Part shown: in pieces, positions 691-63,933 of the stretch
How positions within the stretch are numbered: the stretch's first letter is position 1
How the letters are laid out: each line of letters opens with the position of its first letter
Assembly (NCBI GenBank): GCA_976551045.1
Contig: CDPCPM010000018.1
Span: forward strand, 1,178,001-1,242,000
Length of the DNA: 64,000 bases
Direction: 5' to 3'
DNA from: Glaucostegus cemiculus
Taxonomy: Eukaryota
Translations under genes and position numbers: made by a program
Notes under the pieces: generated by a model
Databases searched by the model: none
What the model saw: only the letters and a program-made list of their open reading frames with translations
Told to the model about the DNA's origin: nothing

Positions 691-816
691 ACATCAATGA
701 ATGTGCAACCAACACATCAAACTGTCAACAAATCTGCACCAACACAATCGGAAGCTTCCTGTGCAGTTGTAACCCTGGCTTCAGTGTCAATGTGACCAAT
801 GCTTCGATTTGTGATG
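691..816 (+). CDS. cbEGF exon A (B-like upstream flank)
   Basis: AG/GT, 126 bp. Confidence 0.85.
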
Positions 817-3800: not shown

Positions 3801-6800
3801 GCTTCCTGTGCAGTTGTAACCCTGGCTTCAGTGTCAACGTGACCAATTCTTCGATTTGTGATGGTAGGAATATGCAAATTCATAGTTTCCAGCAGATTGT
3901 AAAGAATATTGAATGTGGCAGTTGCGTCGCGTAGATTCCCCTACTCTCTGAACCAAATGAATTCTGCTACCGCATCAATGAAAGATAAAGAATATCAGTT
4001 CATCCTCAGTTAGTTTTCACTATTGAGATATTTCTGCAGCAGAAAGAATATTAAAAAATAAGGGAAAATCATAATATCAGAAGGAAGGAAAGATTCCACA
4101 ATTTCTAATCCTGTGTTTTTGAATTCCAAATTGTGAATTTCCAATTTACACAATGGCTTGTATTTCACGAAAGACAGTGTAAGATGTGTAGGCATTCTGA
4201 CGTGAATGATCATCGTAGTGAAGAGTGTCATGGACTCAGGTGGTTAAGTTGTGTCATGTCAAAGTAATACTTTTGAGGAAGGTAATGCAAGTATTGTCAG
4301 GCACCTGTAAAGACATGTCATATTCTCCATACTCTGTCACCCTATTGAGCAACAAATTTTCAGCCGGCAATTGCAAATGACATAAAAGTGGTTGGATAAA
4401 AGTGATTGAGATATTGTTCCATTATTCCCCGTAGACATAAATGAATGTTCAACCAACACATCAAACTGTCAACAAATTTGCAGCAACACAAATGGAAGCT
4501 TCCTTTGTGGATGTAATCTAGGCTTCAGCATCAATTGTGACCAATAGTTCAGTTTGTGATGATGAGATATTTCCCAAGACATTTATTTTCTCTGACTTGG
4601 AAAATAAAATTGAATGTGTCATTTAAAGTCAAGGTGGTCCAGGAATGAACAGTCACATTAAAATTGGATGAAAGGCTAGAGATTCTCCTTTTGATTCCAC
4701 TGTGCAGCGAAAACTTTAATTCAGTTGAATTGTAAAAGTCAGGGACCTCCAACCGACCATTGGCTGTAAAAGATCAAAATTCGTTTCATGTTATCCTGTG
4801 AATGATAAAAGTAGAAGCGGCAATGTCACATAGATTCAATAAACTTAGCTGGTGATGGTTTGTATTATAATGGAAATATATTTTGAGTATCATTGCTCAC
4901 TACTGTTGTTACTATGCAGGGCATCCTTAAGTCTATTGTAGAGCATAACATTTATTGAGAGACTTCCTGTTGGCATAAGGTATCAAGTAAGCAAGTGTTT
5001 GACAGGTCATTCACATTTTTCCTCCAGACATTGATGAATGTGCAACCAACACATCGAACTGTCAACAAATCTGCACCAACACAATCGGAAGCTTCCTGTG
5101 CAGTTGTAACCCTGGCTTCAGTGTCAACGTGACCAGTGCTTCAATTTGTGATGGTAGGAATATGCAAAGTCATAGTTTCCAGCAGATAGCAAAGAATATT
5201 GAATGTGGCATTTGTGTCCCATAGATTCTCCTACTCTCTGAACCAAATGAATTCTGCTAGCGCAACAATGAAAGATAAAAAATATCATTTCATCCTCAGT
5301 CAGTTTTCACTATTGAGATATTTCTGCAGCAGAAAGAATATCAACAAATACAGGAAAATCATAATATCGGAAGGAAGGAAAGTTTATGCTATTTCTAATC
5401 CTGTGTTTTTGAATTCCAAATTGTGAATTTCCAATTTACACAATGGCTTGTATTTCACGAAAGGCAGTATAAGATGTATAGGCATTCTGACGTGAATGAT
5501 CATCGTAGTGAAGAGTGTCATGGTCTCAGGTGGTTAAGTTGTGTCATGTCAAATTAATACTTCTGAGGAAGGCAATGCATGTATTGTCATGCACCTGTAA
5601 AGACATATCATATTCTCCATACTCTGTCACCATATTGAGCAACAAAGTTTCAGCCGGCAATTACAAATGACATAAAAGTGATTGGATAAAAGTGATTGAG
5701 ATGTCGTTCCATTATTCCCCGCAGACTTCGATGAATGTGCAACCAACACATCAAGCTGTCAACAAATTTGCAGCAACACAATTGGAAGCTTCCTTTGCGG
5801 ATGTAATCCAGGCTACAGCATCAATGTGACCAATAGTTCAGTTTGTGATGGTGAGATATTTCCCAACCATTTATTTTCTCTGATTTGGAAAATAAAATTG
5901 AATGTGTCATTTAAAGTCAAGGTGGTCCAGGAATGAACACTGTCACATTAAAATTGGATGAAAGGCTAGAGATTATCCTTTTAATTCAACTGTGCAGTGA
6001 AAACTCTAATTCAGTTCAATTGTAAAAGTCAGGGACGTCTAACCAACCATTGGTTGCAAAATATCAAAATTCGTTTCTTGTCATCCTGTGAATGATAAAA
6101 GTAAAAGCGGCAATGTCACATAGATTCAATAAACTTAGCTGCTGATGGTTAGTATTATAATGGAAATATATTTTGAGAATCATTGCTCTCTACTGTTGTT
6201 ACTGTGCAGGGCATCCTTCACGCCATTGTTGGGCAGAATATTTATTGAGAGACTTCCTGTTGGCATAAGGTAACTAGTAAGCAAGTGTTTGACAGGTCAT
6301 TCACATTTTTCCTCCAGACATTGATGAATGTGCAACCAACACATCGAACTGTCAACAAATCTGCACCAACACAATCGGAAGCTTCCTGTGCAGTTGTAAC
6401 CCTGGCTTCAGTGTCAACATGACCAATGCTTCGATTTGTGATGGTAGGTAAATGCAAATTCATAGTTTCCAGCAGATTGCAAAGAATAGTGAATGTGGCA
6501 GTTGGGTCCCATTGATTCTCCTACTCTCTGAACCAAATGATTTCTGCTCCCGCAACAATGAAAGATAAAGAATATCATTCCATCCTCAGTCAGTTTTCAG
6601 TACTGAGATATTTCTGCAGCAAAAGATGAATGTCACATAGATTGCATAAATCAGCTGGTGATGGTTTGTAACATCATGGAAGCATCTTTTGAGAATCATT
6701 GCTCTGTACTCTGCATTGTTAATGTGCAGGGCATCCTTAAGTCTATTGTAGAGCAGAACATTTATTGCGAGACTTCCTGTTGGCAGAAGGTAACTAGTAA

Positions 6801-9800
6801 GCAAGTGTTTGACAGGTCATTCACTTCTTTTCCTCCAGACATTGATGAATGTGCAACCAACACATCAAACTGTCAACAAATCTGCACCAACACAATCGGA
6901 AGCTTCCTGTGCAATTGTAACCCTGGCTTCAGTGTCAACGTGACCAATGCTTCGATTTGTGATGGTAGGAATACGCAAATTGATAGTTTCCAGCAAATTG
7001 CAAAGAATATTGAATGTGGCAGTTGGGTCCCATAGATTCTCCTACTCTCTGAACCAAATTAATTCTGCTACCACAACAATGAAAGATACAGAATATCAGT
7101 TCATCCTCAGTCAGTTTTCACTGTTGAGATATATCTGCAGCAGAAAGAATATTAAAAAATAAAGGAAAATCAAAATATCGGAAGGAAGGACAGTTTCCCC
7201 AATTTTTAATCCTGTGTTTTTGAATTCCAAATTGTGAATTTCCAATTTATACAATGGCTTGTATTTCACGAAAGACAGTGTAAAGTGTGTAGGCATTCTG
7301 ACATGATTGATCATCGTAGTGTAGAGTGTCATGGGCTCAGGTGGTTAAGTTGTGTCATGTCAAAGTAATACTTTTGAGGAACGCAATGCAAGTATTGTCA
7401 TGCAGCTGTAAAGACATATCATATTCTCCATACTCTGTCACCATATTGAGCAACAAAGATTCAGCCGGCAATTACAAATGACATAAAAGTGATTGGATAA
7501 AAGTGATTGAGATGTCGTTCCATTATTCCCTGCAGACATTGATGAATGTGCAACCAACACATCAAACTGTCAACAAATTTGCAGCAATTCAATTGGAAGC
7601 TTCCTTTGCGGATGTAATCCAGGCTACAGTATCAACGTGACCAATAGTTCAGTTTGTGATGATGAGATATTTCCCAACCATTGATTTTCTCAGACTTGGA
7701 AAATAACATTAAATGTGTCATTTAAAGTTAAGGTGGTCCAGGAATGAACACAGTCACATAAATATTGGATAAATAGCTAGAGCTTTTTCTTTCGATTCCA
7801 CTGTGCAGTGAAAACTTTACTTCAGTTCAATTGTAAAACTCAGGGACCTCTATCTGAACATTGGTTGCAAAAGATCAAAATTCGTTTTATGATATCCCAT
7901 GAATTATCAAAGTACTCTGTTGCAAATGATGAACGTCACATAGATTGTATATATTCAGCTGGTAATGGTGTGTAATATAGGGGAAATATATTTTGAGAAT
8001 CATTGCTCTGTACTCTGCATCGTTACTGTGCAGGGCATCCTTAAGGCTATTGTAGAGCAGAACATTTATTGAGAGACTTCCTGTTGGCAGAAGGTAACAA
8101 GTAAGCAATTCTTTGACAGGTCATTGACTTCTTTTCCTCCAGACATTGATGAATGTGCAACCAACACATCGAACTGTCAACAAATCTGCACCAACACAAT
8201 CGGAAGCTTCCTGTGCAGTTGTAACCCTGGCTTCAGTGTCAACGTGACCAATACTTTGATTTGTGACGGTAGGAATATATAAAGTCATAGCTTCCAGCAG
8301 ATTGCAAAGGGCTCTACTCATTAGAGAGGAGGAGGATGAGAGGGGACTTGATAGAGGTGTTTAAGATATTGAGAGGAATAGATAGAGTTAATAGTCAGCG
8401 CCTCTTTCCCAGAGCGCAGATGCTCAAGACGAGAGGGCATGCCTTTAAGATAATAGGTGGAAAGTATAGGGGAGATGTCAGAGGGAAGTTTTTCACCCAG
8501 AGAGTAGTTGGTACATGGAATGCACTGCCTGGGGTGGTAGTGGAGGTAGATACGTTGGACAGGTTTAAGAGATTGTTAGATAAGCACATGGAAGAATGTG
8601 GAATAGTAGGATATGAGGGTGGAAAGAGTTAGTTTGGGAGATGTTTGTAGGATGGCACAGCTTGATGGGCCGAAGGGCCTGTTCTGTGCTGTATTGTTCT
8701 ATTGTTCTATTGTTCTGTTGTTCTAATATTGAATGTGGCAGTTGGGTCCCATAGATTCTCCTACTCTCTGAACCAAATGAATTCTGCTACCGCAACAATG
8801 AAAGATACAGAATATCAGTTCATCCTCAGTCAGTTTTCACTATTGAGATATTTCTGCAGCAGAAAGAATATTAAAAAATGAAGGAAAATCATAATATCTG
8901 AAGGAAGGAATGTTTCCACAATTTTTAATCCTGTGTTTTTGGATTCCTAATTGTGAATTTCCAATTTACACAATGGCTTGTATTTCACGAAAGAGAGTGT
9001 AAGATGTGTAGGCATTCTGACGTGAATGATCATCGTAGTGAAGAGTGTCATGGGCTCACGTGGTTAAGTTGTGTCATGTCAAAGTAATACTTCTGAGAAA
9101 AGCAATGCAAGTATTGTCATGCACCTGTAAAGATAAATATCATACTCCCCATACTCTGTCACCATATTGAGCAACAAAGTTTCAGCCGGCAATTACAAGT
9201 GACATAAAAGTGATTGGATAAAAGTGATTGAGATGTCGTTCCATTATTCCCCGCAGACATCGATGAATGTGCAACCAACACATCAAACTGTCAACAAATT
9301 TGCAGCAACACAATTGGAAGCTTCCTTTGCGGATGTAATCCAGGCTACAGCATCAATGTGACCAATAGTTCAGTTTGTGATGGTGAGATATTTCCCAATC
9401 ATTTATTTTCTCAGACTTAAAATATAACATTAAATGTGTCGTTTAAAGTTAAGGTGGTCCAGCCATGAATACAGTCACATTAATATTGGATGTAAGGCTA
9501 GAGATTTTTATTTTGATTAAACTGTGCAGCGAAAACTTTACTTCAGTTCAATTGTAAAAGTTAGGGACCTCTATCCGACCATTGGTTGCAAAAGGTCAAA
9601 TTTCGTTTTATGTTATCCCGTGAATTATAGAAGTAGAAGCGGCAGTATGTCATAACACAGCCATATCGGCAAAGGAACTGTAAACTTTAAAGTACTCTGT
9701 TGCCAATGATGAATGTCACGTAGATTGTATATATTCAGCTGGTAATGGTGTGTAATATATGGGAAATATATTCTTTCTTTTTCAATCTTTTTATTGATAA

Positions 9801-33800: not shown

Positions 33801-35239
33801 AAAGACATATCTTATTCTCCATACTCTGTCACCATATTGAGCAAAAAAGTTTCAGCCGGCAATTACAAGTGACATAAATGTGATTGGATAAAAGTGATTG
33901 AGATGTCGTTCCATTATTCCCCGCAGACATCGATGAATGTGCAACCAACACATCAAACTGTCAACAAAATTGCAGCAACACAATTGGAAGCTTCCTTTGC
34001 GGATGTAATCCAGGCTACAGCATCAATGTGACCAATAGTTCAGTTTGTGATGGTGAGATATTTCCCAACCATTTATTTTCTCTGACATGGAAAATATAAC
34101 TGAATGTGTCATTTAAAGTCAAGGTGGTCCAGGTTTGAACACAGTCACATTAAAATTGGATGAAAGGCTAGAGATTTTCCTTTCGATTCCTCTGTGCAGC
34201 CAAAAATTTAATTCAGTTCAATTGTAAAAGTCCTGGACCTCTATCTGAGCATTGGTTGCAAAAGATCAAAATTCGTTTCATGTTATCCTGTGAATTATAA
34301 AAGTAGAAGTGGCTATGTCAAATAAATTCAATAAACTTAGCTGCTGATGGTTTTTATTATAATGGAAATATAGTTTGAGAATCATTGCTCTCTACTGTTG
34401 TTACTGTGCAGGGCATCCTTCACGCCATTGTAGAGCATAACATTTATTGAGAGTCTTCCTCTTGGCATAATGTAACTAGTAAGCAAGTGTTTGACATGTC
34501 ATTCACATTTTTTCTCCAGACATTGATGAATGTGCAACCAACACATCGAACTGTCAACAAATCTGCACCAATAGAATCGGAAGCTTCCTGTGCAGTTGTA
34601 ACCCTGGCTTCAGTGTCAACGTGACCAATGCTTCGATTTGTGATGGTAGGAATATGCAAAGTCATAGTTTCAGGCAGATTGCAAAGAATATTGAATGTGG
34701 CAGTTGGGTCCCATAGATTCTCCTACTCTCTGAACCAAATGAATTCTGCTAGCGCAACAATGAAAGATACAGAATATCAGTTCATATTCAGTCAGTTTTC
34801 ACTATTGAGATATTTCTGCAGCAGAAAGAATATTAAAAATTAAGGAAAATTATAATATCTGAAGGAATGAATGTTTCCACAATTTTTAATCCTGTGTTTT
34901 TGAATTCCAAATTGTGAATTTCCAATTTACAGAATGGCTTGTATTTCACGAGAGACAGTGTAAGATGTGTAGGCATTCTGATGTGAATGATCATCGTAGT
35001 GAAGAGTGTCAAGGGCTCAGGATGTTAATTCGTGTCATGTCAAATTAATACTTCTGAGGAAGACAATGCAACTATTCTCATGCACCTGTAAAGACATATC
35101 ATATTCTCCATACTGTTATGAAGTAGCTTACTATAGGCCAATATCCCTTTTAGATGGGACATCGTGAGTGTGTGCAACGTATTACGTCAACAGAAGATAA
35201 GACTAACGTGATGAGGTCATTACAAGAAAGAAAAAGATA

Positions 35240-35270
<31 letters not shown>

Positions 35271-50200: not shown

Positions 50201-53200
50201 TAGTTCAGTTTGTGATGATGATATATTTCCCAATACATTTATTTTCTCTGACTTGTAAAATAAAATTCAATGTGTCATTTAAAGTCAAGGTGGTCCAGCA
50301 ATGAACACAGTCACATTAAAATTGGATGAAAGGCTAGAGATTCTCCTTTAGATTCCACTGTGCAGTGAAAACTTTAATTCAGTTGAATTGTAAAAGTCAG
50401 GGACCTCTAACCGACCATTGGCTGCAAAAGATCAAAATTCGTTTCATGTTATCCTGTGAATTATAAAAGTAGAAGCGGCAATGTCACATCGATTCAATAA
50501 ACTTAGCTGGTGATGGTTTGTATTATAATGGAAATATATTTTGAGAATCATTGCTCTCTACTGTTGTTACTGTGCAGGGCATCCTTAACGCCATTGTAGA
50601 GCATAACATTTATTCAGAGACTTCCTGTTGGCATAAGGTAACTAGTAAGCAAGTGTTTGACAGGTCATTCACATTTTTCCTCCAGACATTGATGAATGTG
50701 CAACCAACACATCGAACTGTCAACAAATCTGCACCAACACAATCGGAAGCTTCCTGTGCAGTTGTAACCCTGGCTTCAGTGTCAACATGACCAATGCTTC
50801 GATTTGTGATGGTAGGAATATGAAAATTCATAGTTTCCAGCAGATTTATAGCATATTGAATGTGGCAGTTGGGTCCCATAGATTCTCCTGCTCTCTGAAC
50901 CAAATGAATTCTGCTACCGCAACAATGAAAGATACAGAATATCAGTTCATCCTCAGTCAGTTTTCACTATTGAGATATTTCTGCAGCAGAAAGAATATTA
51001 AAAAATAAAGGAAAATCACAATATCTGAAGGAATGAAAGTTTCCACAATATTTAATCCTGTGTTTTTAAATCCACATTTTGGATTTCCAATTTATGCAAT
51101 GGCTTGTATTTCATGAAAGACAGTGTAAGATGTGTAGGCACTCATACGTGAATGTTCATCGTAGTGAAGAGTGTCATGGGCTCCCGTGGTTCAGTGGTGT
51201 CATGTCAAATTAATACTTTTGAGGAAGGCAATGCAAGTATTGTCATGCACCTGTAAAGTCATATCATATCCTCCATACTCTGTCACCATATTGAACAACA
51301 AAGTTTCAGCCGGCAATTACAAATGACATAAAAGTGAATGGATAAATGTGATTGAGATGTCGTTTCATTATTCCCCGCAGACATCGATGAATGTGCAACC
51401 AACACATCAAACTGTCAACAAATTTGCAGCAACACAATTGGAAGCTTCCTTTGCGGATGTAATCCAGGCTACAGCATCAATGTGACCAATAGTTCAGTTT
51501 GTGATGGTGAGATATTTCCCAATCATTTATTTTCTCAGACTTGGAAAATAACATTAAATGTGTCGTTTAACGTTAAGGTGGTCCAGGAATGAATACAGTC
51601 ACATTAAAATTGGATGAAAGGCCAGACATTTTTATTTTGATTCCACAGTGCAGCTAAAACTTTACTTCAGTTGAATTGTAAAAGTTAGAGACCTCTATCC
51701 GACCATTGTTTGCAAAAGATGAAAATTCGTTTTATGTTATCCTGTGAATTATAAAAGTAGAAGCGGCAGTATGTCATAACACAGCCATATCAGCCAAGGA
51801 AATGTAAATGTTTAAGTACTCTGTTGCCAATGATGAATGTCACGTAGATTGTGAATATTCGGCTCGTAATGGTGTGTAATATAGGGGAAATATATTTTGA
51901 GAATCATTGCTCTGTACTCTGCATTGTTACTGTGCAGATCATCTTTAAGGCTATTGTAGAGCACAACATTTATTGAGAGACTTCCTGTTGGCATAAGGTA
52001 ACTAGTAAGCAATGTTTGACAGGTCATTCACTTCTTTTTCTCCAGACATTGATGAATGTGCAACCAACACATTGAACTGTCAACAAATCTGCACCAACAC
52101 GATCGGAAGCTTCCTGTGCAGTTGTAACTCTGGCTTCAGTGTCAGTGTGACCAATGATTCGATTTGTGATGGTAGGTATATATATAGTCATAGTTTCCAG
52201 CAGATTGCATAGAATATTGAATGTGGCAGTTTGGTCCCATAGATTCTCCTACTGTATAAACCAAATGAATTCTGCTACCATAACAATGAATGATAAAGAA
52301 TATCAGTTCTTCTTCTGTCAGTCTTCACTTTAGAGATGTTTGTGCAGCAGAACAAATATTAAATAATAAAGGTAAATATTAACATCTGAAGGACTGAAGG
52401 CTTCCTTTGCGGATGTAATCCAGGCTTCAGCATCAACGTGACCAATAGTTCCGTTTGTGATGGTGAGATGTTTCGCAGTTCTTTTCTTGTATTTGCAAAA
52501 TCAAATTGAAGAAATTTGAAATTGTGGTGGACCACTTTTGAAATTGAGATGGACCAGGAATGAAGTTAGTCACATTAATATTTGATGAAAAAGGATACTT
52601 CTTTCTCTGTAATGCTATGGCCTAGTTATTAATTTAATGCTGAATTAATTTTGAAAATCAAAGTATAATGTTTTATCTTATGGTAGTTAAGAATCTAAAT
52701 TCTCTGCATGTTACCCTGTGAAATACAACTGCAATTCACTTCATTACTGCCATTTTACCAAACGGTATGGAAACTTCAATGTACTCTGTTGCCATTCTGA
52801 ACATAGAGAATAGTGGCACAAAGTCAGTTCATAATGGTTTATATTGTCACGGAAATATAGTTGAGAAGCACTGCTCCATACAGTGTGTTGCCACTGTACA
52901 GGGCATCCTGAAATCTATTGTAGATCAGAATGTTAATTGAGAAAGTTCCTGCTGGCAAAGGGAAATGCTAAACAAATGTTTGATATGTCATGCACTTCTT
53001 TTCCTCTAGACATTGATGAATGTGCCACCAACATATCCAACTGTCAACAAATCTGCACCAACACAATCGGAAGCTTCATTTGCAGTTGTAATCCTGGGTT
53101 CTGCAGCAACCTGGACAACCCTTCAATTTGTGATGGTAGTAATTTACAAGCTCATTGTTTCTCACAGAGTGCAAAGAATATTAAATGTGGTAATTGGGCC

Positions 53201-56200
53201 ACATAGGTTATTGTGCCCTGTGAACTAAATGAATTCGGGCACCTTAATAATGAATTAAGAAGAATATCAGTTCATTCTAAGTGAATATTCACTATAGATA
53301 TGTTTCTAATTTCCAGTTTTTATTTCTGAGTCAGTGAATTTCAAATTGTGAATTTCCATTTTTCAATATTTCTTGAATTTCACCAAAGGCAATTTATAAT
53401 TTTCAAGTACTGTGACTTTAATGATCAATGTAACCAAGAATGTCATGTACTCACTTGGTTATTTTGTGTGATGTCAAAGTAATTTTTTTGAGGTAGGCAG
53501 GTGTATTGATTACTTTGCACCTGTTAAGGCACATCATATTCTCTGTAGTATTTCATGATATTGAGAGACAAAATTTCAGCTGTCAAATACAAATGACATA
53601 AAAGTGATTGGATAAAAGTGATTGAGATGTTGTTCCACTATTCACTGCAGACATCGATGAATGCGCAACCAACACATCAAACTGTCAACAAGTCTGCACC
53701 AACACAATTGGAAGCTTCATGTGCAGTTGTAATCCAGGCTTCAGCATCAACGTGACCAATACTTCAGTTTGTGTTGGTGAGGTTATGCCCAAACATTTAT
53801 TTTCTCAGATTTTGAAATTGAAGTTTAATGTGTCTTTTGAAATTGAGGTGGTCCAGAAATGAATTTAGTCACATTAATATTTGATGAAAAATGATATATT
53901 TTCTTTCTCTGTGATATTTCAGTGCAGCAATAAATATACTACAGCTTAGTTTTAAGACTCACGGAAAAATGTCCTACCTTATGGTTGGTAAACTTCAAAA
54001 AACTTTTAAAGTTTACCTCTGAATTATAATGTAATACCTGCAGTTTATAATAATACTGGCATTTCACCAAAGGCTAAGTAAAATTCAAATTACTTTGTTG
54101 CCAATGATCAATGTCACAAAGGTGGCTTAAACTCAGCTGGTAGTGGTTTGTAAAGCCATGGAAATGTATTTTGAGAAGCATTGTTCCATACACTGGATTG
54201 TCACTGTGCAGGGCAACCTTAAATCCATTGTAGATCAGAAGATTTATTGAGAGAGTTCCTGCTGGGAAAGGGCAAATGCTAAGCAAGTATTTGATATGTC
54301 ATTCACTTCTTTCCCTCCAGACATTGATATTAAGAAATAGATGTAAATGATAATATCTGAAGGAAGTTATATTTCCACAATTATTATTCATGAGTCAGCA
54401 AATTCAAAAATCATGAACTTCCATTTTACAGCATTCGTTGAATTTCACCAAAGGCAGTTTAACATGTGAAAGTACTGTGACGTTAATGATCAAGATGTCC
54501 AAGAGTGTCATGCACTCACCTGGTTGTGTTTTGCAATGTCAAAGTAAGACCTTTGAGGAAGGCAGGTGTAAGGATTGTCTTGAACCTGTAAATTCACATT
54601 ATATTCTCTATAGCTTTTCACGATAGTATGAGAGAAAATTTCAGCTGGTAAACAATGACACAGAAGTGATTGGAAAGAAGTGAATGAGACGTCATTCCTT
54701 TATTCCCTGCACACATCGATGAATGCGCAACCAACACATCAAACTGTCAGAATTAGAATCAGAATTAGAATCAGTTTTATTGTCACAACCATATACACAT
54801 ATACAGTATGCATAGGAGCGAGATACCGTCCTCCACAGGTGCACGTCACATTAAGTATTAAACAGAAGAGACACACAGACACACATTGAAAAAGAACATT
54901 AAAACCACGAAAATGAATTTAAATTCTGCAGCTTAAATAAATAGTTTTAAAATGAGTGAACCGTCAACAAATCTGCACCAACACAATTGGAAGCTTCATG
55001 TGCAGTTGTAAACCAGGCTTCAGCGTCAACATGAACAATACTTCAGTTTGTAATGGTGAGATGTTTCACAAATATATCTTCTTTCAAGTGTGGAAAATAA
55101 AATTTAATGTGTCTTTTAAAACTGAGGTAGTTCAGAAATGAATCTTATGTCTCATTAATGCAATATGTCATTCAATCAACTCATCGAAATGTGAACAAAT
55201 CTGCACCAACACAATCGGAAGCTTGCTGCACAGTGGCTTCAGCACCAACGTGACCAGTACTTAGATTTGTGATGGAAGGAAGTGGCAAACTCTGTTTCTC
55301 ATACATTGCAAAGAATATTCAATGTGGCAGTTGGGCCTCATAGATTATTGTGCCCTGTGAACTAATTTGATTCTGATATCAGTTGATCCTCAATGTGCCT
55401 TCAATATAGAGTTGTCTCTATGGCAAAAGGAATATTCAGAAATAGAGGTAAATGATAATATCTGAAGGAAGGTAAATTTCAACAATTTTTATTCATGAGT
55501 CAGTGAATTTCAAACTGTGAATTTCCATTTTCAACACTGCTTGAATATCACCAAAGGCAGTTTATATAGTGTGATGTTAGTGATCAAAGTAGCCAAGAGT
55601 GCCATACACTCACCCGGTTATGTTATGCAATGTCAAAGTAATACTCTTGTGGAAGGCAGGTGTATTGATAGTCTTGCCCCTGTAAAGATACATCATACAG
55701 GCTGAAGATAATCAATACTATTTCATAACATTAAGAGACAAATTTTTAGTTGGCAAAGACAAATGACATAAAAATGATTGGATAAAAGTGATTGGATAAA
55801 AGTGATTGAGATGTTGTTCCGTTATGTACTGCAGATATCGATGAATGTGCAACAAAAACATCAAACTGTCAACAAATTTGCAGCAACACAATTGGAAGTT
55901 TCATGTGCAGTTGTAATCCAGGCTTCAGCATCAACGTGACCAATAGTTCAGTTTGTGATGGTGAGATGTTTCCTAAACATTAATTTTTTTGGATATGGAA
56001 AATAAAATTTAATGTGTCTTTTAAACCTGTGAACCAGAAGTGAATTTTAGTCATGTTAATATTGGAAAACAATATCTTTTCTTTCTCTGTGACTCTGCAG
56101 TATAGTCACTAATCCTTGACAGTTTAATTTTAAAAATCAAGGTAAAATGTCCTACCTGATGGTATTTAAACTTCTAAAATCTCTTCATGTTATCCTGTGA

Positions 56201-59200
56201 AATAACAGATTTGTTATAATGGGTGATTTCAACTTCCCAAATATAGATTGGGACATGCTTAGTGCCAAAGGTTTAGAAGGGAACAAGTTTGTTAAATATG
56301 TCCAGGATGGATTCCTGACGCAGTATGTTGATAGGCCAACTAGAGGGAATGCCGTGTTGGATCTAGTTTTAGGAAATGAACTGGGACAGCTGAGCGATCT
56401 ACTGGTGGGTGAGCATTTGGGGGACAGTGATCATTGCTCCATAACCTTTAGAATTGTCATGGACAGGTTTAGGTGCAGAGAGGACAGGAAGATATTTAAT
56501 TGGGGAAGGGCGGACTATGCAGCTATAAGGAGAGAACTTGGGGGTGTAAATTGGGAAGTCCTTTTTGTAGGGAAATGTACTATGGAGATGTGGATGATGT
56601 TCAGGGATCTTTTACAGGATGTTAGGGATAAATATGTCCCGGCGAGACAGAGAAGGAATGGCAGGGTGAAGGAACTGTGGGTGACCAGAGAGGTGGAACG
56701 ACTGGTTAGGAGGAAGAAGGCAGTGTACGTAAGGTGTAAGCAGCAAGGCTCAGACAGGGCCCGTGAGGAATATAGTGTAGTGAAGAAGGAACTTAAGAAA
56801 GGACTGAGAAGAGCTAGAAGGGGACATGAAAAGACCTTGGCTAGTAGGTTTAAGGAAAATCCCAAGGCTTTTTTCTCGTACGTGAAGGGCAGAAGGATGG
56901 ATAGGGTAAAGGTAGGTCCGATTAAAGACAAAGGTGGGAGGATGTGCCTGGAGGCGGTGGAAGTAGGAGAGGTTCTAAATGAATACTTCTCTTCAGTATT
57001 CACCAAGGTGTCTTGATGACGTGGTAGAGAGTACTGGTAAGGGTAATGTTCTCGACTATGTTATCAAGAGGGAGGATGTGTAGAAGTTGTTAAATAATAT
57101 CAAGACAGGTAAGTCTCCGGGGCCTGATGGTATATTCCCCAGGCTGCTTCAAGAGGCGAGGGGGGAAACTGTTGATCCACTGGTGAGGATCTTTGTTGTC
57201 CACAGGGATGGTGCTGGAGGATTGGCAGGTAGCAAATGTTGTCCCCTTGTTCAAGAAAGTTAGTAGGGATAGTCCAGCGAATTACAGACCGGTGAGTCTC
57301 ACGTCTGTGGTGGGTAAGCTGTTAGAAAGGATTCTTAGGGATAGGATCTATGAACATCTGGAAAGTTGATTAGGGACAGTCAGCATGGCTTTGTGAAGGG
57401 AAGATCTTGCCTCACGAGCCTGATAGAATTCTTTGAGGAGGTGACGAGGAAGCTTGATGAGGGCAGTGCAGTGGATGTGGTCTACATAGATTCTAGTAAG
57501 GCGTTCGATAAGGTTCCTCATGGTAGGCTTCTTCAGAAGGGCAGAGGGTCAAGGCATCCAGAGAAGATTGGCTGTGTGGATCAGGAATCGGCTTGCTTGT
57601 AGAAAGCAGAGGGTTGTGGTGGAGGGAGTGCCCTCGGATTGGAGGACTGTGACTAGTGGTGTCCCGCAGGGATCGATTCTGGGACCTCTACTCTTTGTTA
57701 TATTTATAGATGACTTAGATGAAGGGGTGGAAGGATGGGTTAGTAAATTTGTGGATGACACCAAGATCGGCGGTGTGGTGGATAGTGTGGAGGACTGTCA
57801 GAGCTTACAGAGGGATATTGATAGGACGCAGAGCTGGGCGGACAGGTGTCAGATGGAGTCTAATCTGAAGATGTGTGAGGTGGTGCACTTTGGTAGGACA
57901 AACTCCATGGCAGAGTACAAGGTAAATGGCAAGATACTTGGCAGCGTAGAGAGCAGAGGGATCTGGGGGTTCATATCAACAGTTCACTCAAAGTTGCCTC
58001 GCAGCTGGATAGGGCAGTTAAGAAGGCTTATGGGATGCTAGCTTTTATAAATCATGGGATTGAGTTCAAGAGCAGAGAGGTGATGGTGCTGCTTTACAAA
58101 ACTCTATTTAGACCGCACTTAGAGTATTGTGTTAAGTTCTGGTCACCACATTATAGGAAGGATGTGGAGGTGTTGGAGAGGGTACAGAGGCAAATTACCA
58201 GGATGATGCCTGGATTAGAGGGTATGGAATATGAAGAGAGGCTTAAGGTGCTAGGGCTTTACTCGTTGGAGAGGAGGAGGATAAGAAGAGACTTGATAGA
58301 GGTGTATAAAATATTGAGAGGAATAGATAGAGTAGACAGCCAGTGCCTCTTTCCCAGGGCACAGATACTCAAGATGAGAGGGAATGGCTTTAAGGTATTG
58401 GGTGGAAAGTTCAGGGGAGATGTCAGAGGGAAGTTTTTCACCCAGAGAGTGGTTGGCACATGGAATGCGCTGCCTGGGGTGGTGGTGGAGGCAGATACAT
58501 TGGACAAGTTCAAGAGATTGTTAGATAGGCATATGGAGGAATGTGGGATAGAGGGATATGTGGGAGGAAAGAGTTAGATCGTGTGAGGTTTGATGGACAA
58601 CACAACATGGTGGGCCGAAGGGCCTGTTTAGTGCTGTATTGTTCTACGGTTCTATGGAAGTATAAATATAGTTGTAGTGTATAATAATTTTGCCATTTCA
58701 CCAAAGTGTATGTAAACTTCAAAGCACTCTGATCATTGATGAATTTCATGAAGAGTGGCACATACTTAGTTGGTAATGGTCCTAATCTCAGGGAAATATT
58801 TTTGAGAAACACTGCTCCATACCCTGTGTTGACACTATACAGTGCATCCTGCAATCTCATAGATCAGAACATTAATTGGCAGAGTTTCTGTTGGCAAAGG
58901 CAAATGCTAAGCAAGTGTTTGATTGTCATGCACTCCTTTTCCTCCAGACATCGATGAATGTGACACCACCACATCAAACTGTCAACAAGTCTGCACCAAC
59001 ACAATCGGAAGTTTCATGTGCAGTTGTAACCCTGGCTTCAGCATCAACATGTCCGATACTTCGCGTTGTGATGGTGGGATATTTTCCAAATATATATTTT
59101 CTCAGATTTTGGAAATAATATTTAATGTGGTAGTTCATTCTGGATTTGAATACTGAGGCAGTCCGGAAATGAATTTTAGTCACCTTAATATTGAATGAAA

Positions 59201-62200
59201 AATGATTCATTTCTTCCCCTGTGATACCTCATAATAGTGATATGTTACCACAGAAATATTTATTAAAATCATGTTAAAATGTCATATATTATGACAGTTA
59301 AACTTCTAATATCTATTCATGTTATCCTGTGAAATATTAATCTTATACCAGCAGTATATAATAATTGTGCCACTTCACCAAAGGGTATGTAAACTTTACA
59401 ACATTGATTATTGGCATTAAAGTATTTTGAAGAGTGGCACACACTCACTTGGTAATGATGTGTAATGTCAGGAAAATATAGTTGAGAATCACTGCTCCAT
59501 ACACAGTGCTGCCACTGTACAGTGCATTCTGAAATCTATTGTGGATCAGAACATCAATGGACAGAGTTTCTGTTGATGAAGGCAAATTCTAAGCAAGTTT
59601 AAAATGTCATTCACTCCTTTTCCTCCAGACGTCGATGAATGTGCAACCAACACATCGAACTGTCAACAAATCTGTACCAACACGATTGGAAGCTTCATCT
59701 GCAGTTGTAACCCTGGCTTCAGCATCAATGTGTCCAATACTTCGCTTTGTGATGGTGGGATGTTTTGCAAACTCATGTTTTCTCAGATTCAGTAAAAAAA
59801 AAATTTAATGTGGCAGCTCTGACTGTCTTTTAAAAATGAGATGTTCCTAAAATCACAAAAAGTCACCTTAAAATTGGATGAAATTGGATATCATTTCTTT
59901 TTTTCTGTGATACATCACAGCAGTGATATGTTACCACAGAATTAATTATTAAAATCAATGTAGAATCTCATATCTTATGGTTTATAAACTTCTAAAATCT
60001 CTTGAAGGAAAAAAAACAAGATGCTGGAGGAACTCAGCAGGTTAGGCAGCATCCATGGAGAAAAGCAGTCAACGTTTTGGGTCAGGACCCTTCTTCAGGA
60101 CTTAAGATAGGAAAAGGGGAAAACAAAGCAGTGATAGTTGGACAAAAGAAGGGAGGCAGGGTGGGCACAAGGTGGTGATAAGTAGATACAGCTAAGAGGT
60201 AGTGATAAGCAAATGTGGGGGAGGAGGGGAGAGCAGATCCAGCAGGGGATGGGTCAAAGCTATTGAGGCAGGCGCCCCATGGGGAGAGGGGAGGAGAAAA
60301 AAGTGATAGGCTAGGAAATGGAAAAAATTAGAAGATGCATGGTGGGGGTCGGAGGGGATGGTTTACTTAAGGTGGGAGAATTCAATGTTCATGCCATTAG
60401 GCTGTAAGGTCCCAATCAGGGTAAACTGTTGAATGTTTAGCAAGTAAATCTTCCACAATTCTTCACATTACCCTGTGAAATCTGGTAATGAAACCTGAAT
60501 TTTTCAATATTTTGACCATTTCACCATAGGGTATAAAATCTTGATAGTACTGTGATGCCAATGATCAAAATTAGCAATGATTGGCACAAACTCAGCTGGT
60601 AATGTAATGTCAAAGCAATATTTTTGAGAAACACAGTTCCATATACCATGTTGCCTCTGGACGGTGACATCCTGTAGTCTTTTATAGATCAGAATATTAA
60701 CTGACAGTCATTCAGTTGGGAAAAACAAACAATGTTGACCTTTGACCTCCCAACCTTCATCCCCCCCCCCCCACTAAAAACACACACACACACACTCTGA
60801 CTATCCCCAATTTTTATGTTACTTCCATGGCAATCTTTGTTGCTGTACTGCGATGGGCAAGGATCTTATAAGCGCTGACACACTATCAGTTGGCAATGAC
60901 ACAGCAGCTGCGAGCTCTGGATTGACATCCTGCAGAGATTCCATTTTAGCGCATGAATGGGAGTGCTAAATGCCGTAGCAACATTCTTCATTTATTTTTG
61001 GTCAATTTTGTGTATTTTGGGGGGAAATGGAAGATATTAGCAACACCTACAGCACACATTTCATGCACCAAGATGGTGAACTCCAGTTTCTCAGGTTATA
61101 CATTCTGTAATAAGAATATTATATTGCAGAATTGAGTCATTCTTGTCATTAAGGAGGTTGAAAGTTTTGACTATATCATAACCTTTCTAAAAAAAGTTTG
61201 CAGTTCCTGAGTTTCAATTTCTCAATGAAATTGTCATATGATATGCATATTGTCTTGAAAGTTCTATATTGATAAAGTTATGTGAAGAAAATAATAACCA
61301 ATAGTAGTCATTTGATATCTGGCTTTGCCTTGCTGGGAGGCAGTGGTCATGGGGTCAGTCAGTCCTTTCAGAGTAACCTAAGCAAATAAATGGAGTGCAA
61401 TGGAGTTTAAGATATTGAGAGGAATAGATAGAGTTAATAGTCAGCGCCTCTTTCCCAGAGTGCAGATGCTCAAGACGAGAGGGCATGCCTTTAAGATAAT
61501 AGGTGAAAAGTATAGTGGAGATGTCAGAGGGAAGTTTTTCACCCAGAGAGTGGTTGGTGCATGGAATGCACTGCCTGGGGTGGTAGTGGAGGTAGATACG
61601 TTGGACAGGTTTAAGAGATTGTTAGATAAGCACATGGAAGAATGTGGAATAGTAGGATATGAGGGTGGAAAGAGTTAGTTTGGGAGATGTTTGTAGGATG
61701 GCACAGCTTGATGGGCCGAAGGGCCTGTTCTGTGCTGTATTGTTCTATTGTTCTATTGTTTGTTCATTTCGAACTCGGTACAGAGAACCACAATTCACCA
61801 GTGGTAAAGCAGGTGAATGCTTACTATGATCAGTAGGCTGTCAGTCAGGTGGGCTGCTTGGTACTGGATGATGTTGACTTTATTGAAAATTATTTCAGGA
61901 CTCATCCAGACAAGTGGAAAGAAGACAGGATGGCATCCCCAAACCCATGGATTCCAATGCATGATAAATTAGGAGGAGAGTCACTGGTTTGGGAATGGGA
62001 GGTGGTTGAGTGGCCGAGAATTGGAAGTAGGGTTGGCAGCAGAACTGAGGGTTGGTTCCTGATGATCAGAAGATATGTCAGCGATCATGGGTCTGGAGCA
62101 GAGGGTTGAGGTGAGGATTTCTTCAGGAGTTTTGTGGTTGTAGGGGATGATTACAGGTGGTGGCTGTTAGATTGGTAGTCATAGGTGGGAGTGGGGGTTG

Positions 62201-62640
62201 TGAACAGATGATGACTGATTGATCAGTAGATGGTGGGCAGCATCAGCAGATTGGTTGTAGGATGGTTCAGCTGAGGGTCATAAGTTTCAGAGGCATAGGT
62301 GTGGAGAACCAAAAGAGATCCAAGCAAGAACCTACCTTAGACAAAGTCAAACAGTTTATAGTCCACTAACCCATGAATTTTGTGTCCTTGTGCATTCAAG
62401 AGTTATTTCAAATTCTGATAAAATGCTGAAGGCAAATCAGTGAATTGCTAGGAATATCAAGAAATCTTAACATCATATAGCCTGATCCCAAGGTAACTAA
62501 TTAACGAGTTTCATTTCCAGATATCGATGAATGTGCAAACAGATCAACTTGTCAACAAAATTGCAAAAATACAATTGGAAGTTTTGAATGCAGCTGTGAT
62601 GATTTCTTCAGCATCAACAAAGACAATTTGTCATGTGATG
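691..62640 (+). CDS. Internal portion of a giant multi-exon gene for an extracellular protein with ~76 tandem calcium-binding EGF domains (fibrillin-like/mucin-like EGF-array protein); 5' and 3' ends not visible
   Basis: Repeated AG|ACATYGATGAATGT...TGTGATG|GT exons of 126 bp, phase 1-1. Translation has the D-I-D-E-C calcium motif, 6 Cys and C-x-N-x-x-G-S-F-x-C-x-C. Count: 42 type A, 28 intact type B, 6 divergent. No signal peptide, TM segment or stop-containing exon seen. Confidence 0.9.
1386..1511 (+). CDS. cbEGF exon B
   Basis: AG/GT, 126 bp, [42 protein letters not shown]. Confidence 0.85.
2310..2435 (+). CDS. cbEGF exon B
   Basis: AG/GT, 126 bp. Confidence 0.85.
2591..2830 (-). mobile_element. 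tRNA-derived V-SINE (HE1-like)
   Basis: Minus strand: A-box-like tagcatagtggt, B-box ggttcgattcc, V-domain gtctgcgtgggtttcctccgggtgcttcggtttcctcccaca, 3' tail gggccgaaagggcctgtt shared with the CR1 LINE 3' ends in this window. Confidence 0.9.
3217..3342 (+). CDS. cbEGF exon A
   Basis: AG/GT, 126 bp. Confidence 0.85.
3738..3863 (+). CDS. cbEGF exon A
   Basis: AG/GT, 126 bp. Confidence 0.85.
4435..4561 (+). pseudogene. Inactivated cbEGF exon B
   Basis: +1 insertion (tcaattgtga), donor GT>AT, several missense changes. Confidence 0.85.
5028..5153 (+). CDS. cbEGF exon A
   Basis: AG/GT, 126 bp. Confidence 0.85.
5725..5850 (+). CDS. cbEGF exon B
   Basis: AG/GT, 126 bp. Confidence 0.85.
6318..6443 (+). 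CDS. cbEGF exon A
   Basis: AG/GT, 126 bp. Confidence 0.85.
6839..6964 (+). CDS. cbEGF exon A
   Basis: AG/GT, 126 bp. Confidence 0.85.
7536..7661 (+). pseudogene. cbEGF exon B with lost donor
   Basis: tgtgatg|atgaga instead of |gtgaga; frame otherwise open. Confidence 0.75.
8143..8268 (+). CDS. cbEGF exon A
   Basis: AG/GT, 126 bp. Confidence 0.85.
8310..8724 (+). mobile_element. 5'-truncated CR1-clade (HER1-like) LINE 3' end
   Basis: [13 protein letters not shown]...FFTQRVV..WNALP ORF2 C-terminus and (TTGTTCTA)n tail; interrupts consensus attgcaaag|aatattgaatg with no TSD. Confidence 0.93.
9257..9382 (+). CDS. cbEGF exon B
   Basis: AG/GT, 126 bp. Confidence 0.85.
9773..10544 (-). mobile_element. 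5'-truncated L1-clade LINE 3' end
   Basis: [12 protein letters not shown]...AIFG...[16 protein letters not shown]...W...LNLEK resembles an L1 ORF2 C-terminus; AATAAA and A-rich tail on minus strand; 7-bp TSD ATATATT (9766-9772 and 10545-10551). Confidence 0.85.
10702..10827 (+). CDS. cbEGF exon A
   Basis: AG/GT, 126 bp. Confidence 0.85.
11399..11524 (+). CDS. cbEGF exon B
   Basis: AG/GT, 126 bp. Confidence 0.85.
12064..12189 (+). CDS. cbEGF exon A
   Basis: AG/GT, 126 bp. Confidence 0.85.
12586..12711 (+). CDS. cbEGF exon A lacking Cys6 (C>G)
   Basis: AG/GT, 126 bp, ends NAFIGD. Confidence 0.7.
13281..13406 (+). CDS. cbEGF exon B
   Basis: AG/GT, 126 bp. Confidence 0.85.
13874..13999 (+). 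CDS. cbEGF exon A
   Basis: AG/GT, 126 bp. Confidence 0.85.
14569..14694 (+). CDS. cbEGF exon B
   Basis: AG/GT, 126 bp. Confidence 0.85.
15162..15287 (+). CDS. cbEGF exon A
   Basis: AG/GT, 126 bp. Confidence 0.85.
15860..15985 (+). CDS. cbEGF exon B
   Basis: AG/GT, 126 bp. Confidence 0.85.
16453..16578 (+). CDS. cbEGF exon A
   Basis: AG/GT, 126 bp. Confidence 0.85.
17150..17275 (+). CDS. cbEGF exon B
   Basis: AG/GT, 126 bp. Confidence 0.85.
17743..17868 (+). CDS. cbEGF exon A
   Basis: AG/GT, 126 bp. Confidence 0.85.
18439..18564 (+). CDS. cbEGF exon B
   Basis: AG/GT, 126 bp. Confidence 0.85.
19032..19157 (+). CDS. cbEGF exon A
   Basis: AG/GT, 126 bp. Confidence 0.85.
19730..19855 (+). 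CDS. cbEGF exon B
   Basis: AG/GT, 126 bp. Confidence 0.85.
20323..20448 (+). CDS. cbEGF exon A
   Basis: AG/GT, 126 bp. Confidence 0.85.
20843..20968 (+). CDS. cbEGF exon A
   Basis: AG/GT, 126 bp. Confidence 0.85.
21540..21665 (+). CDS. cbEGF exon B
   Basis: AG/GT, 126 bp. Confidence 0.85.
22133..22258 (+). CDS. cbEGF exon A
   Basis: AG/GT, 126 bp. Confidence 0.85.
22829..22954 (+). CDS. cbEGF exon B
   Basis: AG/GT, 126 bp. Confidence 0.85.
23422..23547 (+). CDS. cbEGF exon A (NTIES variant)
   Basis: AG/GT, 126 bp. Confidence 0.8.
23942..24067 (+). CDS. cbEGF exon A
   Basis: AG/GT, 126 bp. Confidence 0.85.
24640..24765 (+). CDS. cbEGF exon B
   Basis: AG/GT, 126 bp. Confidence 0.85.
25233..25358 (+). 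CDS. cbEGF exon A
   Basis: AG/GT, 126 bp. Confidence 0.85.
25929..26054 (+). CDS. cbEGF exon B
   Basis: AG/GT, 126 bp. Confidence 0.85.
26522..26647 (+). CDS. cbEGF exon A
   Basis: AG/GT, 126 bp. Confidence 0.85.
27220..27345 (+). CDS. cbEGF exon B
   Basis: AG/GT, 126 bp. Confidence 0.85.
27813..27938 (+). CDS. cbEGF exon A
   Basis: AG/GT, 126 bp. Confidence 0.85.
28332..28457 (+). CDS. cbEGF exon A
   Basis: AG/GT, 126 bp. Confidence 0.85.
28852..28977 (+). CDS. cbEGF exon A
   Basis: AG/GT, 126 bp. Confidence 0.85.
29549..29674 (+). CDS. cbEGF exon B
   Basis: AG/GT, 126 bp. Confidence 0.85.
30142..30267 (+). CDS. cbEGF exon A
   Basis: AG/GT, 126 bp. Confidence 0.85.
30838..30963 (+). 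CDS. cbEGF exon B
   Basis: AG/GT, 126 bp. Confidence 0.85.
31431..31556 (+). CDS. cbEGF exon A
   Basis: AG/GT, 126 bp. Confidence 0.85.
31950..32075 (+). CDS. cbEGF exon A
   Basis: AG/GT, 126 bp. Confidence 0.85.
32647..32772 (+). CDS. cbEGF exon B (GSSFCRC variant)
   Basis: AG/GT, 126 bp. Confidence 0.8.
33231..33356 (+). CDS. cbEGF exon A
   Basis: AG/GT, 126 bp. Confidence 0.85.
33927..34052 (+). CDS. cbEGF exon B
   Basis: AG/GT, 126 bp. Confidence 0.85.
34520..34645 (+). CDS. cbEGF exon A
   Basis: AG/GT, 126 bp. Confidence 0.85.
35954..35971 (+). promoter_or_regulatory. tRNA-Pro primer binding site
   Basis: TGGGGGCTCGTCCGGGAT, 4 nt after the LTR-terminal CA; matches the classical tRNA-Pro PBS. 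Confidence 0.92.
36122..36457 (+). pseudogene. Truncated Gag N-terminus reading into the inverted LTR segment
   Basis: [30 protein letters not shown]...RKADIQKII downstream of the PBS; resembles Gmr1-type Gag N-termini from memory. Confidence 0.65.
36670..36795 (+). CDS. cbEGF exon B
   Basis: AG/GT, 126 bp. Confidence 0.85.
37263..37388 (+). CDS. cbEGF exon A
   Basis: AG/GT, 126 bp. Confidence 0.85.
37960..38085 (+). CDS. cbEGF exon B
   Basis: AG/GT, 126 bp. Confidence 0.85.
38553..38678 (+). CDS. cbEGF exon A
   Basis: AG/GT, 126 bp. Confidence 0.85.
39147..40592 (+). mobile_element. Fold-back LTR retrotransposon derivative, copy 2 (LTR 39147-39978, PBS 39983-40000, gag start 40151, inverted arm 40398-40592)
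   Basis: Near-identical to 35114-36563, same intron position, same ATAC TSD. Confidence 0.88.
40699..40824 (+). CDS. cbEGF exon B
   Basis: AG/GT, 126 bp. Confidence 0.85.
41279..41404 (+). CDS. cbEGF exon A
   Basis: AG/GT, 126 bp. Confidence 0.85.
41975..42100 (+). CDS. cbEGF exon B
   Basis: AG/GT, 126 bp. Confidence 0.85.
42568..42693 (+). CDS. cbEGF exon A
   Basis: AG/GT, 126 bp. Confidence 0.85.
43264..43389 (+). CDS. cbEGF exon B
   Basis: AG/GT, 126 bp. Confidence 0.85.
43857..43982 (+). CDS. cbEGF exon A
   Basis: AG/GT, 126 bp. Confidence 0.85.
44553..44678 (+). CDS. cbEGF exon B
   Basis: AG/GT, 126 bp. Confidence 0.85.
45146..45271 (+). CDS. cbEGF exon A
   Basis: AG/GT, 126 bp. 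Confidence 0.85.
45843..45968 (+). pseudogene. cbEGF exon B with lost donor
   Basis: tgtgatg|atgata. Confidence 0.8.
46437..46562 (+). CDS. cbEGF exon A
   Basis: AG/GT, 126 bp. Confidence 0.85.
47134..47259 (+). CDS. cbEGF exon B
   Basis: AG/GT, 126 bp. Confidence 0.85.
47727..47852 (+). CDS. cbEGF exon A
   Basis: AG/GT, 126 bp. Confidence 0.85.
48387..48401 (+). pseudogene. Remnant of exon B (acceptor and most of exon deleted)
   Basis: gtgattggat joined directly to gttcagtttgtgatg|gtgag. Confidence 0.8.
48874..48999 (+). CDS. cbEGF exon A (DIVEC variant)
   Basis: AG/GT, 126 bp. Confidence 0.8.
49395..49520 (+). CDS. cbEGF exon A
   Basis: AG/GT, 126 bp. Confidence 0.85.
50092..50217 (+). 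pseudogene. cbEGF exon B with lost donor
   Basis: tgtgatg|atgata. Confidence 0.8.
50686..50811 (+). CDS. cbEGF exon A
   Basis: AG/GT, 126 bp. Confidence 0.85.
51381..51506 (+). CDS. cbEGF exon B
   Basis: AG/GT, 126 bp. Confidence 0.85.
52046..52171 (+). CDS. cbEGF exon A
   Basis: AG/GT, 126 bp. Confidence 0.85.
52397..52462 (+). pseudogene. 3' half of exon B (5' half and upstream intron deleted)
   Basis: gcttcctttgcggatgtaatccaggc...tgtgatg|gtgag fused to intron sequence. Confidence 0.8.
53010..53135 (+). CDS. Divergent cbEGF exon
   Basis: AG/GT; [42 protein letters not shown] (extra Cys). Confidence 0.75.
53651..53776 (+). CDS. Divergent cbEGF exon
   Basis: AG/GT, 126 bp, 6 Cys. Confidence 0.82.
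54713..55055 (+). pseudogene. cbEGF exon disrupted by an insertion; acceptor AG>AC
   Basis: ctgcac|acatcgatgaatgc...aactgtca [insert] aaccgtcaacaaatctgc...tgtaatg|gtgag. Confidence 0.8.
54750..54958 (-). mobile_element. Non-LTR retroelement 3' tail (Rex/Babar-like)
   Basis: (AGAATY)n tail + ttttattgtca (AATAAA on minus strand); 8-bp TSD-like aactgtca/aaccgtca. Confidence 0.6.
55177..55275 (+). pseudogene. Decayed cbEGF exon remnant
   Basis: caaatctgcaccaacacaatcggaagctt with internal deletion, no acceptor, donor lost. Confidence 0.7.
55835..55960 (+). CDS. Divergent cbEGF exon
   Basis: AG/GT, 126 bp, 6 Cys. Confidence 0.85.
56205..58655 (+). mobile_element. CR1-clade LINE, 5'-truncated, disrupted ORF2 (endonuclease C-part + reverse transcriptase)
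   Basis: [20 protein letters not shown] (EN); [26 protein letters not shown] (RT); WNALP C-terminus; frameshifts and stops; gggccgaagggcctgtt 3' UTR. Confidence 0.95.
58948..59073 (+). CDS. Divergent cbEGF exon
   Basis: AG/GT; [42 protein letters not shown]. Confidence 0.85.
59629..59754 (+). CDS. Divergent cbEGF exon
   Basis: AG/GT; [42 protein letters not shown]. Confidence 0.85.
60008..60419 (-). mobile_element. Penelope-like element 3' fragment
   Basis: Minus strand [18 protein letters not shown] (60364-60419) resembles the PLE GIY-YIG C-terminal motif; followed by a pyrimidine-rich UTR and a hammerhead-like motif. Confidence 0.75.
61404..61760 (+). mobile_element. CR1-clade LINE 3' fragment, near-identical to 8310-8724
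   Basis: [18 protein letters not shown]...WNALP; same 3' UTR and tail. Confidence 0.93.
61850..61920 (-). mobile_element. Possible old, degraded LINE RT fragment
   Basis: ctggatgatgttga...actcatccagacaagtgga resembles antisense of a PLAWMS...LDTIQ-type motif. Confidence 0.3.
62521..62640 (+). CDS. Most divergent cbEGF exon (120 bp), outside the homogenised array
   Basis: tttccag|AT...gatg|gtaaag; [40 protein letters not shown]. Confidence 0.88.
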
Positions 62641-63928: not shown

Positions 63929-63933
63929 AAGGC

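Follow-up and report, generated by a model that had tools for sequence, protein, structure and literature searches.

A calcium-binding EGF exon array that is probably the middle of a secreted mucin gene at the MUC4/TNK2 locus of Glaucostegus cemiculus

What kind of gene carries dozens of near-identical calcium-binding EGF (cbEGF) exons in an unbroken row, is the row real, and does it look as if it were maintained as protein? These questions are raised by a stretch of 64,000 nucleotides of Glaucostegus cemiculus DNA (contig CDPCPM010000018.1, hereafter C18, positions 1178001-1242000; referred to as the window), which was analysed together with a surrounding region of 854 kb containing no N, in an assembly of 2.85 Gb. 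Coordinates without the C18 prefix are positions in the window.

A blastn search with the first array exon gave 85 matches within the window, and in a six-frame scan all 78 EGF patterns lay on the + strand (0 on the - strand). There were 80 full-length cbEGF exons, 76 of them with AG..GT borders and an open frame, amounting to 9,570 nt or 3,190 codons. Blastn combined with a splice-site check thereby reproduced exactly the count of the original prediction (80 full-length, 76 intact, 9,570 nt, ~3190 aa). Seventy-five of the intact exons were 126 nt each, stop-free and bounded by AG..GT; the 76th was a divergent final exon of 120 nt. In four full-length copies (4435, 7536, 45843 and 50092) the donor was AT in place of GT, the first of them having +1 nt as well, and five partial remnants were recognized (160, 52337, 54713, 54930 and 55158). 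As had been predicted, no other domain exon was recognized between the array EGF exons, the spacing consisting of intron repeats and inserts only. In a genome-wide search, all 84 matches to an array exon fell at the array locus (150 of 531 candidates were scored). The features of the window are:

1..690, + strand: intron end linking the array to the upstream part of the gene, outside the window
160..285, + strand: decayed EGF exon remnant ahead of the first intact copy (partial blastn match)
691..52171, + strand: homogeneous core of 70 intact 126-nt cbEGF exons of types A and B, with four donor-dead B-type copies
4435..4561, + strand: dead EGF copy, frameshift of +1 nt, donor AT
7536..7661, + strand: dead EGF copy, frame open, donor AT
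34646..40698, no strand: two enlarged introns (34646-36669 and 38679-40698), each with an interspersed element of ~830 bp
45843..45968, + strand: dead EGF copy, frame open, donor AT
50092..50217, + strand: dead EGF copy, frame open, donor AT
52337..59754, + strand: divergent 3' edge with five intact cbEGF exons (53010, 53651, 55835, 58948 and 59629) and four broken remnants
~56200-58650: LINE-type insertion in the divergent 3' edge
62521..62640, + strand: final and most divergent cbEGF exon, 120 nt, AG..GT
62641..64000, + strand: intron start leading to a tail exon outside the window

At 54713-55055, an insertion of ~200 bp splits one EGF exon in two, and its acceptor is gone too. For 52001-62000, no RNA data set was listed as containing the sequence, which says nothing about expression; the LINE in this interval probably accounts for the entries with small shares.

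cbEGF domains are marked by six Cys, a start of the form D-x-D/N-E-C and the motif C-x-N-x4-F/Y-x-C. The consensus was present in 73 of the 75 126-nt exons, all six Cys likewise in 73/75 and the hydroxylation motif in 74/75; each of four exons tested scored above the curated cut-off of Pfam EGF_CA (PF07645; 35.6-41.1 bits against 27). The split codon at the splice junction encoded Asp before all 76 EGF exons, including the join from the Thr/Ser/Pro-rich (PTS) mucin exons described below. The array contained 225 N-X-S/T N-glycosylation sequons, about three per domain. In the loop between the third and fourth Cys, the pattern C-x-N-T-x-G-S-F/Y-x-C was found in 72/75 exons; we take it to be a POGLUT2/3 O-glucosylation site.

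Donor sequence divided the exons into types A (n=45) and B (n=30). Nucleotide identity was 98.1% among A exons, 98.5% among B exons and 84.9% between the types, and 37 distinct sequences occurred among 75 exons. The repeat consisted mainly of A-B units, each ~1,290 bp long; where A followed A, the step was ~520 bp. The two enlarged introns were 99.5% identical over 2,024 nt, insert included, which indicates that unit duplication continued after the insertion. Divergent and broken EGF copies clustered at the 3' edge of the array; a homogeneous centre with decayed edges is the pattern that would be expected of unequal crossing-over. Since the units are near-identical and their copy number rests on one assembly, the array might be suspected of being a shorter one that the assembler over-expanded. 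This is extremely improbable, because the longest exact repeat inside the EGF array was 1,973 bp, the array introns were 93-95% identical and nearly all distinct (A-to-B introns in 22 of 23 cases), and unique insertions and dead copies were interspersed in the array, in a region free of N. Judged by repeat length and intron distinctness, the EGF array looks real.

We then compared exon and intron change for signs of selection. Between A and B exons dN/dS was 0.13, and it ranged from 0.12 to 0.60 in ten pairs of older copies. Exons (98%) resembled one another more closely than introns did (93-95%). The 70 young copies held 53 distinct variants, in which changes to Cys, to Ca ligands or to stops numbered 4 as against 11.0 expected (P=0.008; expected counts computed with an assumed kappa of 4). 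Synonymous changes were not significantly enriched (18 as against 14.3 expected, P=0.16), and other missense changes were not depleted (31 as against 27.7). No stop or indel was found in the 76 splice-intact exons, as compared with 14 distinct indels in 1,431 intron columns; the absence of exon indels is weak evidence alone, as only ~2.5 were expected. All four damaged full-length copies lacked a donor, and a stop disqualified none of the full-length copies whose splice sites were intact. The array thus looks as though it has been selected as protein, by purifying selection.

The original prediction had proposed a mucin-like, an adhesion-GPCR-like or a matrix protein as the bearer of the array and had pointed to the flanks for an identification. 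The features found outside the window are:

C18:1024409-1063580: tandem paralog with a homologous signal exon, ~15 PTS exons, three intact and one decayed cbEGF exon, a tail exon and a predicted short last exon
C18:1092054-1092132, + strand: signal-peptide exon, 79 nt (blastn with the paralog's signal exon, E 4.6e-4)
C18:1123246-1176820, + strand: 33-38 PTS mucin exons, phase 1-1, ~2,000-2,200 aa
C18:1247795-1247925, + strand: tail exon, 41 aa followed by TGA, with AATAAA ~480 nt downstream
C18:1287363-1288387: likely pseudogene fragment with decayed remnants of PTS and EGF exons, located between the window gene and a MUC4-like gene
C18:1458634-1494553: second cbEGF array in the MUC4-like neighbour, 31 splice-intact near-identical exons of another sequence type
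C18:1676548-1775000: further MUC4-like gene with a signal-exon candidate, NIDO-AMOP-VWD, EGFs and a transmembrane (TM) exon
C18:1817909-1830000, - strand: TNK2/ACK1 kinase exons, tail-to-tail with the MUC4-like genes (E 5e-49 against PDB ACK1 chains)

Upstream, the signal exon and the PTS exon array bore out the mucin-like option. The signal exon was 46% identical to the N-terminus of the paralog and 42% identical to that of a catshark relative. Thirty-three PTS exons comprised 6,072 nt and 2,024 aa, with 69% T/S/P, and a looser rule gave 38 exons. Signal and PTS exons were intact and in phase with the EGF array, and broken PTS and EGF copies flanked both arrays. At C18:1148000-1167000, a LINE-type insertion has been tripled together with the PTS repeat unit, and exact repeats there reach at least 6 kb.

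Downstream, the tail was 51% identical to the paralog tail and to the catshark tail, each, and only two copies were found in the genome. The tail exon exceeds that of the paralog by 1 nt, and the homologous last exon has AT at its acceptor; the last ~18 residues consequently differ from the paralog. The exon ends in a donor-like site that is conserved in the paralog, and an in-frame TGA precedes this donor. The final EGF exon and the tail exon, in the same unique surroundings, were also covered by contigs of two other organisms (4 of 13 runs on the unique 3' flank; the contigs are DNA-like only). Across the T-run of the tail exon one contig was gap-free but extended only ~20 letters beyond; another contig had one gap, not necessarily within this run. 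Pfam returned 0 families at E<=1 for the tails of the window gene and the paralog, and the tail had 0 matches among 1.84 billion representative sequences. A tail search of the Atlas gave unnamed clusters only, one with the ferredoxin-fold family PF03147 in 20% of its members, which is a lead only. EGFs dominated the matches of a PDB profile search, and an AlphaFold2 model of catshark P0010 had a pLDDT of 40. The tail did not align significantly with the membrane-proximal exons of the neighbours (P 0.29-0.82) or with a SEA-bearing protein (P 0.67). A description of the tail as SEA-like was dropped: Pfam gave 0, no candidates emerged, and shuffle tests were not significant.

Exon and TM scans, together with tblastn using the neighbours' C-terminal exons, revealed no convincing TM exon, second half of a SEA domain or homologue of the last EGF within 100 kb beyond the tail. 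Nor was a GAIN/7TM, ZP, TB or transmembrane exon recognized in 100 kb after the array by these scans, which are heuristic rather than domain profiles and could miss short or weak exons. Modules of the NIDO, AMOP and VWD types were absent from the window gene by tblastn, all three such modules of the region lying downstream. The flanks therefore yielded an upstream signal exon and none of the NIDO/AMOP/VWD, SEA, GAIN/7TM or ZP domains within the gene. Neither the adhesion-GPCR-like option nor a fibrillin-like matrix protein was supported by these scans, and the catshark relative likewise ends at the same tail.

Among the nearest known counterparts is an uncharacterized protein of the catshark Scyliorhinus torazame (XP_072330233-242 / scyTo_0015748), which shares a homologous signal peptide, PTS sequence and the tail (51%), and has no TM. 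Among the 20 matches listed, the best EGF identity was that of catshark P0010 (scyTo_0015748), at 85%. The RefSeq models P0027 and P0028 (gene of XP_072330233-242) run from signal through PTS and one cbEGF to the same tail and a stop, and the catshark tail is as short as that of the window gene. The cbEGF is of the same type, 33-36 of 41 residues being identical to type A. The catshark gene has one EGF in P0027/P0028 and two in an older model, with isoforms of 346-398 aa, whereas the window gene has 76 EGFs and ~5,300 aa. Because the paralog (three EGFs) and the catshark gene (one EGF) share the signal, the EGF type and the tail, the 76-exon expansion appears to be lineage-specific. With one or two such EGFs in the catshark models and three in the tandem paralog, the predicted lineage-specific, satellite-like expansion is supported. 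The broken flanking copies and the remnant at C18:1287-1288 kb show that gene decay occurs at this locus.

Further downstream lay ~117 PTS exons, the 31-copy cbEGF array, three NIDO-AMOP-VWD modules, two TM exons and TNK2/ACK1. The three modules were located by tblastn at C18:1515-1752 kb, with single-exon Pfam matches below curated cut-offs, and TM exons were found only at C18:1653325 and 1773925. The signal-exon candidate of the MUC4-like neighbour lies at C18:1343082. A single giant gene running from the paralog through the window gene into the MUC4-like genes was considered and rejected, each having its own signal-exon candidate. Within C18:1343082-1655000, no TM or signal exon was seen between the first NIDO-AMOP-VWD-EGF module and a 1.5-kb PTS exon at 1593852; two MUC4 modules may therefore stand in tandem within a single gene, ahead of the TM exon at 1653325. 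The neighbour's 31-copy array has exact repeats of at least 6 kb, which makes its copy number less secure. In a tree of 20 EGF exons, the window copies grouped with the third EGF of the paralog (89/97, drawn open), apart from the neighbour's array; this grouping indicates that the two arrays arose from different exons. On the other side of the paralog, at C18:978003-1016554, LRR exons (Pfam LRR_6) lie on the + strand, with a frame on the - strand that we presume to be a NACHT-like, NLR-type piece. Linkage of muc4 and tnk2 has been described in Chondrichthyes (PMC11599192, in the part of the article available), and the available part of a human 3q29 gene list gives MUC20, MUC4, TNK2 and TFRC (PMC7793333). 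The window gene adjoins the MUC4-like genes on the side away from TNK2, which is the MUC20 position. Given MUC4-like genes and TNK2 as neighbours, and by comparison with the human order, the window gene and its paralog occupy the MUC20 slot.

We favour, with a probability of roughly two in three, the explanation that the 76 exons form the central part of a single mucin gene, composed of a signal exon, a Thr/Ser-rich array, the EGF array and a short tail, with no TM exon found. Its product, if expressed, would be a secreted protein of ~5,300 residues that joins a predicted O-glycan brush to a predicted Ca2+-stiffened, N-glycosylated EGF rod. A phase 1-1 EGF exon would be a frame-neutral module, so that unequal crossing-over between A-B units could multiply one ancestral EGF. 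It may have raised the number of EGFs from the one to three seen in relatives, keeping the centre homogeneous while the edges decayed. Splicing would restore the first Ca2+-ligand Asp at each junction; the domains in tandem would therefore take up Ca2+ and pack together as a semi-rigid rod. The rise per cbEGF domain is 2.5-3 nm, and the predicted rod is ~200 nm long. With about three N-glycan sites per domain, it could form a second, stiff glycan brush in mucus or in an epithelial coat, the presumed tissue setting. Donor-less copies would be skipped without a change of frame, so that protein length could also vary by splicing.

Other readings share part of this evidence. The gene might be a recently dead or dying paralog and the array selfish tandem DNA, with signs of selection inherited from the ancestral A and B exons. 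The altered tail, the lost acceptor of the last exon, the lack of a significant synonymous excess among young copies, the decayed remnants nearby and an intact paralog that could take over the function all fit this reading. We nevertheless consider it unlikely: Cys, Ca-ligand and stop changes are deficient among the young copies themselves, the signal exon and the PTS exons remain intact, the catshark gene also has so short a tail, and the freedom of the 76 exons from stops and indels points, if weakly, the same way. A product that is expressed with only a subset of EGF exons in most transcripts, the array being a cassette for length variation rather than one 76-domain rod, is about as improbable. 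No mutually exclusive design was evident and donors and acceptors were uniform across copies, against which stand the free skippability of exons that are all phase 1-1 and multiples of three, the several catshark isoforms, and the same idea as proposed, in the accessible part of the report, for the multi-exon PTS region of chicken Muc13 (PMC1552070).

A further reading takes the array as a membrane-anchored stalk, its transcript continuing into a TM exon that escaped detection or into the MUC4-like gene downstream. The conserved donor-like site of the tail exon and the TM exons of the MUC4-like neighbours would suit such a stalk. With the in-frame TGA ahead of that donor, nothing of the membrane-proximal kind detected in the next 100 kb, a signal-exon candidate belonging to the next gene itself and catshark models that end at the tail, this is very improbable, and the product is likely not a membrane stalk.

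A wider interpretation is tentative and, in our view, rather doubtful. It holds that the secreted mucin gene favoured above is the cartilaginous-fish counterpart of MUC20, which would have retained a cbEGF from its ancestor and made of it an N-glycan rod with 76 units and 225 sequons. The rod would be a second type of bottlebrush, stiff and Ca2+-switchable, with its length set by exon copy number and skipping. The MUC4-like neighbour would have done likewise independently, with 31 copies of a different EGF, which would suggest that selection has favoured very long coats at this locus.

If expressed, the gene would give a vertebrate mucin of ~5,300 aa, the longest part of which would be near-identical cbEGFs following one another without a break, with about three N-glycan sites per domain. 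Being an (A-B)n polymer throughout, the rod would allow the stiffening of EGF tandems by Ca2+ and N-glycans to be studied cleanly in a natural system. Exon-level VNTR growth appears to have taken place twice, independently, within one MUC4 cluster, and the window gene may offer a route to the origin of MUC20. Annotation easily collapses such genes or leaves them 'uncharacterized'.

How does the gene compare with known systems? MUC4 and MUC4-like genes (NIDO-AMOP-VWD-EGF-TM) share with it the cluster, the TNK2 linkage and the order of PTS followed by cbEGF, extending to the neighbour's 31-copy array; they differ in that the window gene is without NIDO, AMOP, VWD and a TM exon. MUC20 is usually classed as membrane-associated, and we know of no EGF in it; the tail of the window gene presumably resembles the MUC20 C-terminus. 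The likeness to MUC20 is one of position; a difference is that TNK2 here lies tail-to-tail with the MUC4-like genes. MUC20 has the same genomic slot and, in the part of the source available, is a mucin of the PTS kind whose C-terminus is described as functional (PMC12906183). The chicken Muc13 PTS region, in the part of the report available, has one near-identical exon per repeat unit, with splicing-based control of length proposed (PMC1552070); unlike the window gene, Muc13 has SEA and TM domains, adjoins HEG and has no EGF array. The SEA mucins MUC13, MUC3 and MUC1 carry a SEA domain, and none was found in the tail of the window gene. Fibrillin and LTBP have TB (8-Cys) domains between cbEGF runs, of which none was recognized in the spacing between the array exons, and adhesion GPCRs (ADGRE) have GAIN and 7TM after their EGFs, of which none was recognized after the array.

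A literature search found no account of this gene or design, supplements, where mucin inventories could list it, being outside its scope; a search with the catshark tail motif returned 0 papers, and 'EGF' occurred 0 times in the main text available of a shark skin proteomics study (PMC10707392) and of an account of mucin evolution (PMC4948705). Structural secretions are known that contain disulfide modules in very long rows: Dumpy (308 EGF modules) and CREMP (81 modules; 10.1101/2025.09.16.676614), and octovafibrin (29 EGF) and fibrillin (up to 47 EGF; PMC10336842), as given in the available parts of these sources. The record length implied by the original prediction was therefore overstated. 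According to the same parts, Dumpy combines several domain types in a mosaic, each CREMP module holds two disulfides, and the EGFs of octovafibrin, which has lectin ends, do not bind Ca2+; none of the four is described there as a PTS mucin in which near-identical cbEGFs follow one another uninterrupted. As read from its exons, the window gene has the architecture of a mucin and the motifs of cbEGF, and it is not MUC4, an adhesion GPCR, a fibrillin or, by any test run, a SEA mucin. Longer EGF arrays, such as the 308 modules of Dumpy, are known already; what is new is a predicted secreted-mucin variant with extreme cbEGF exon expansion at the MUC4/TNK2 locus.
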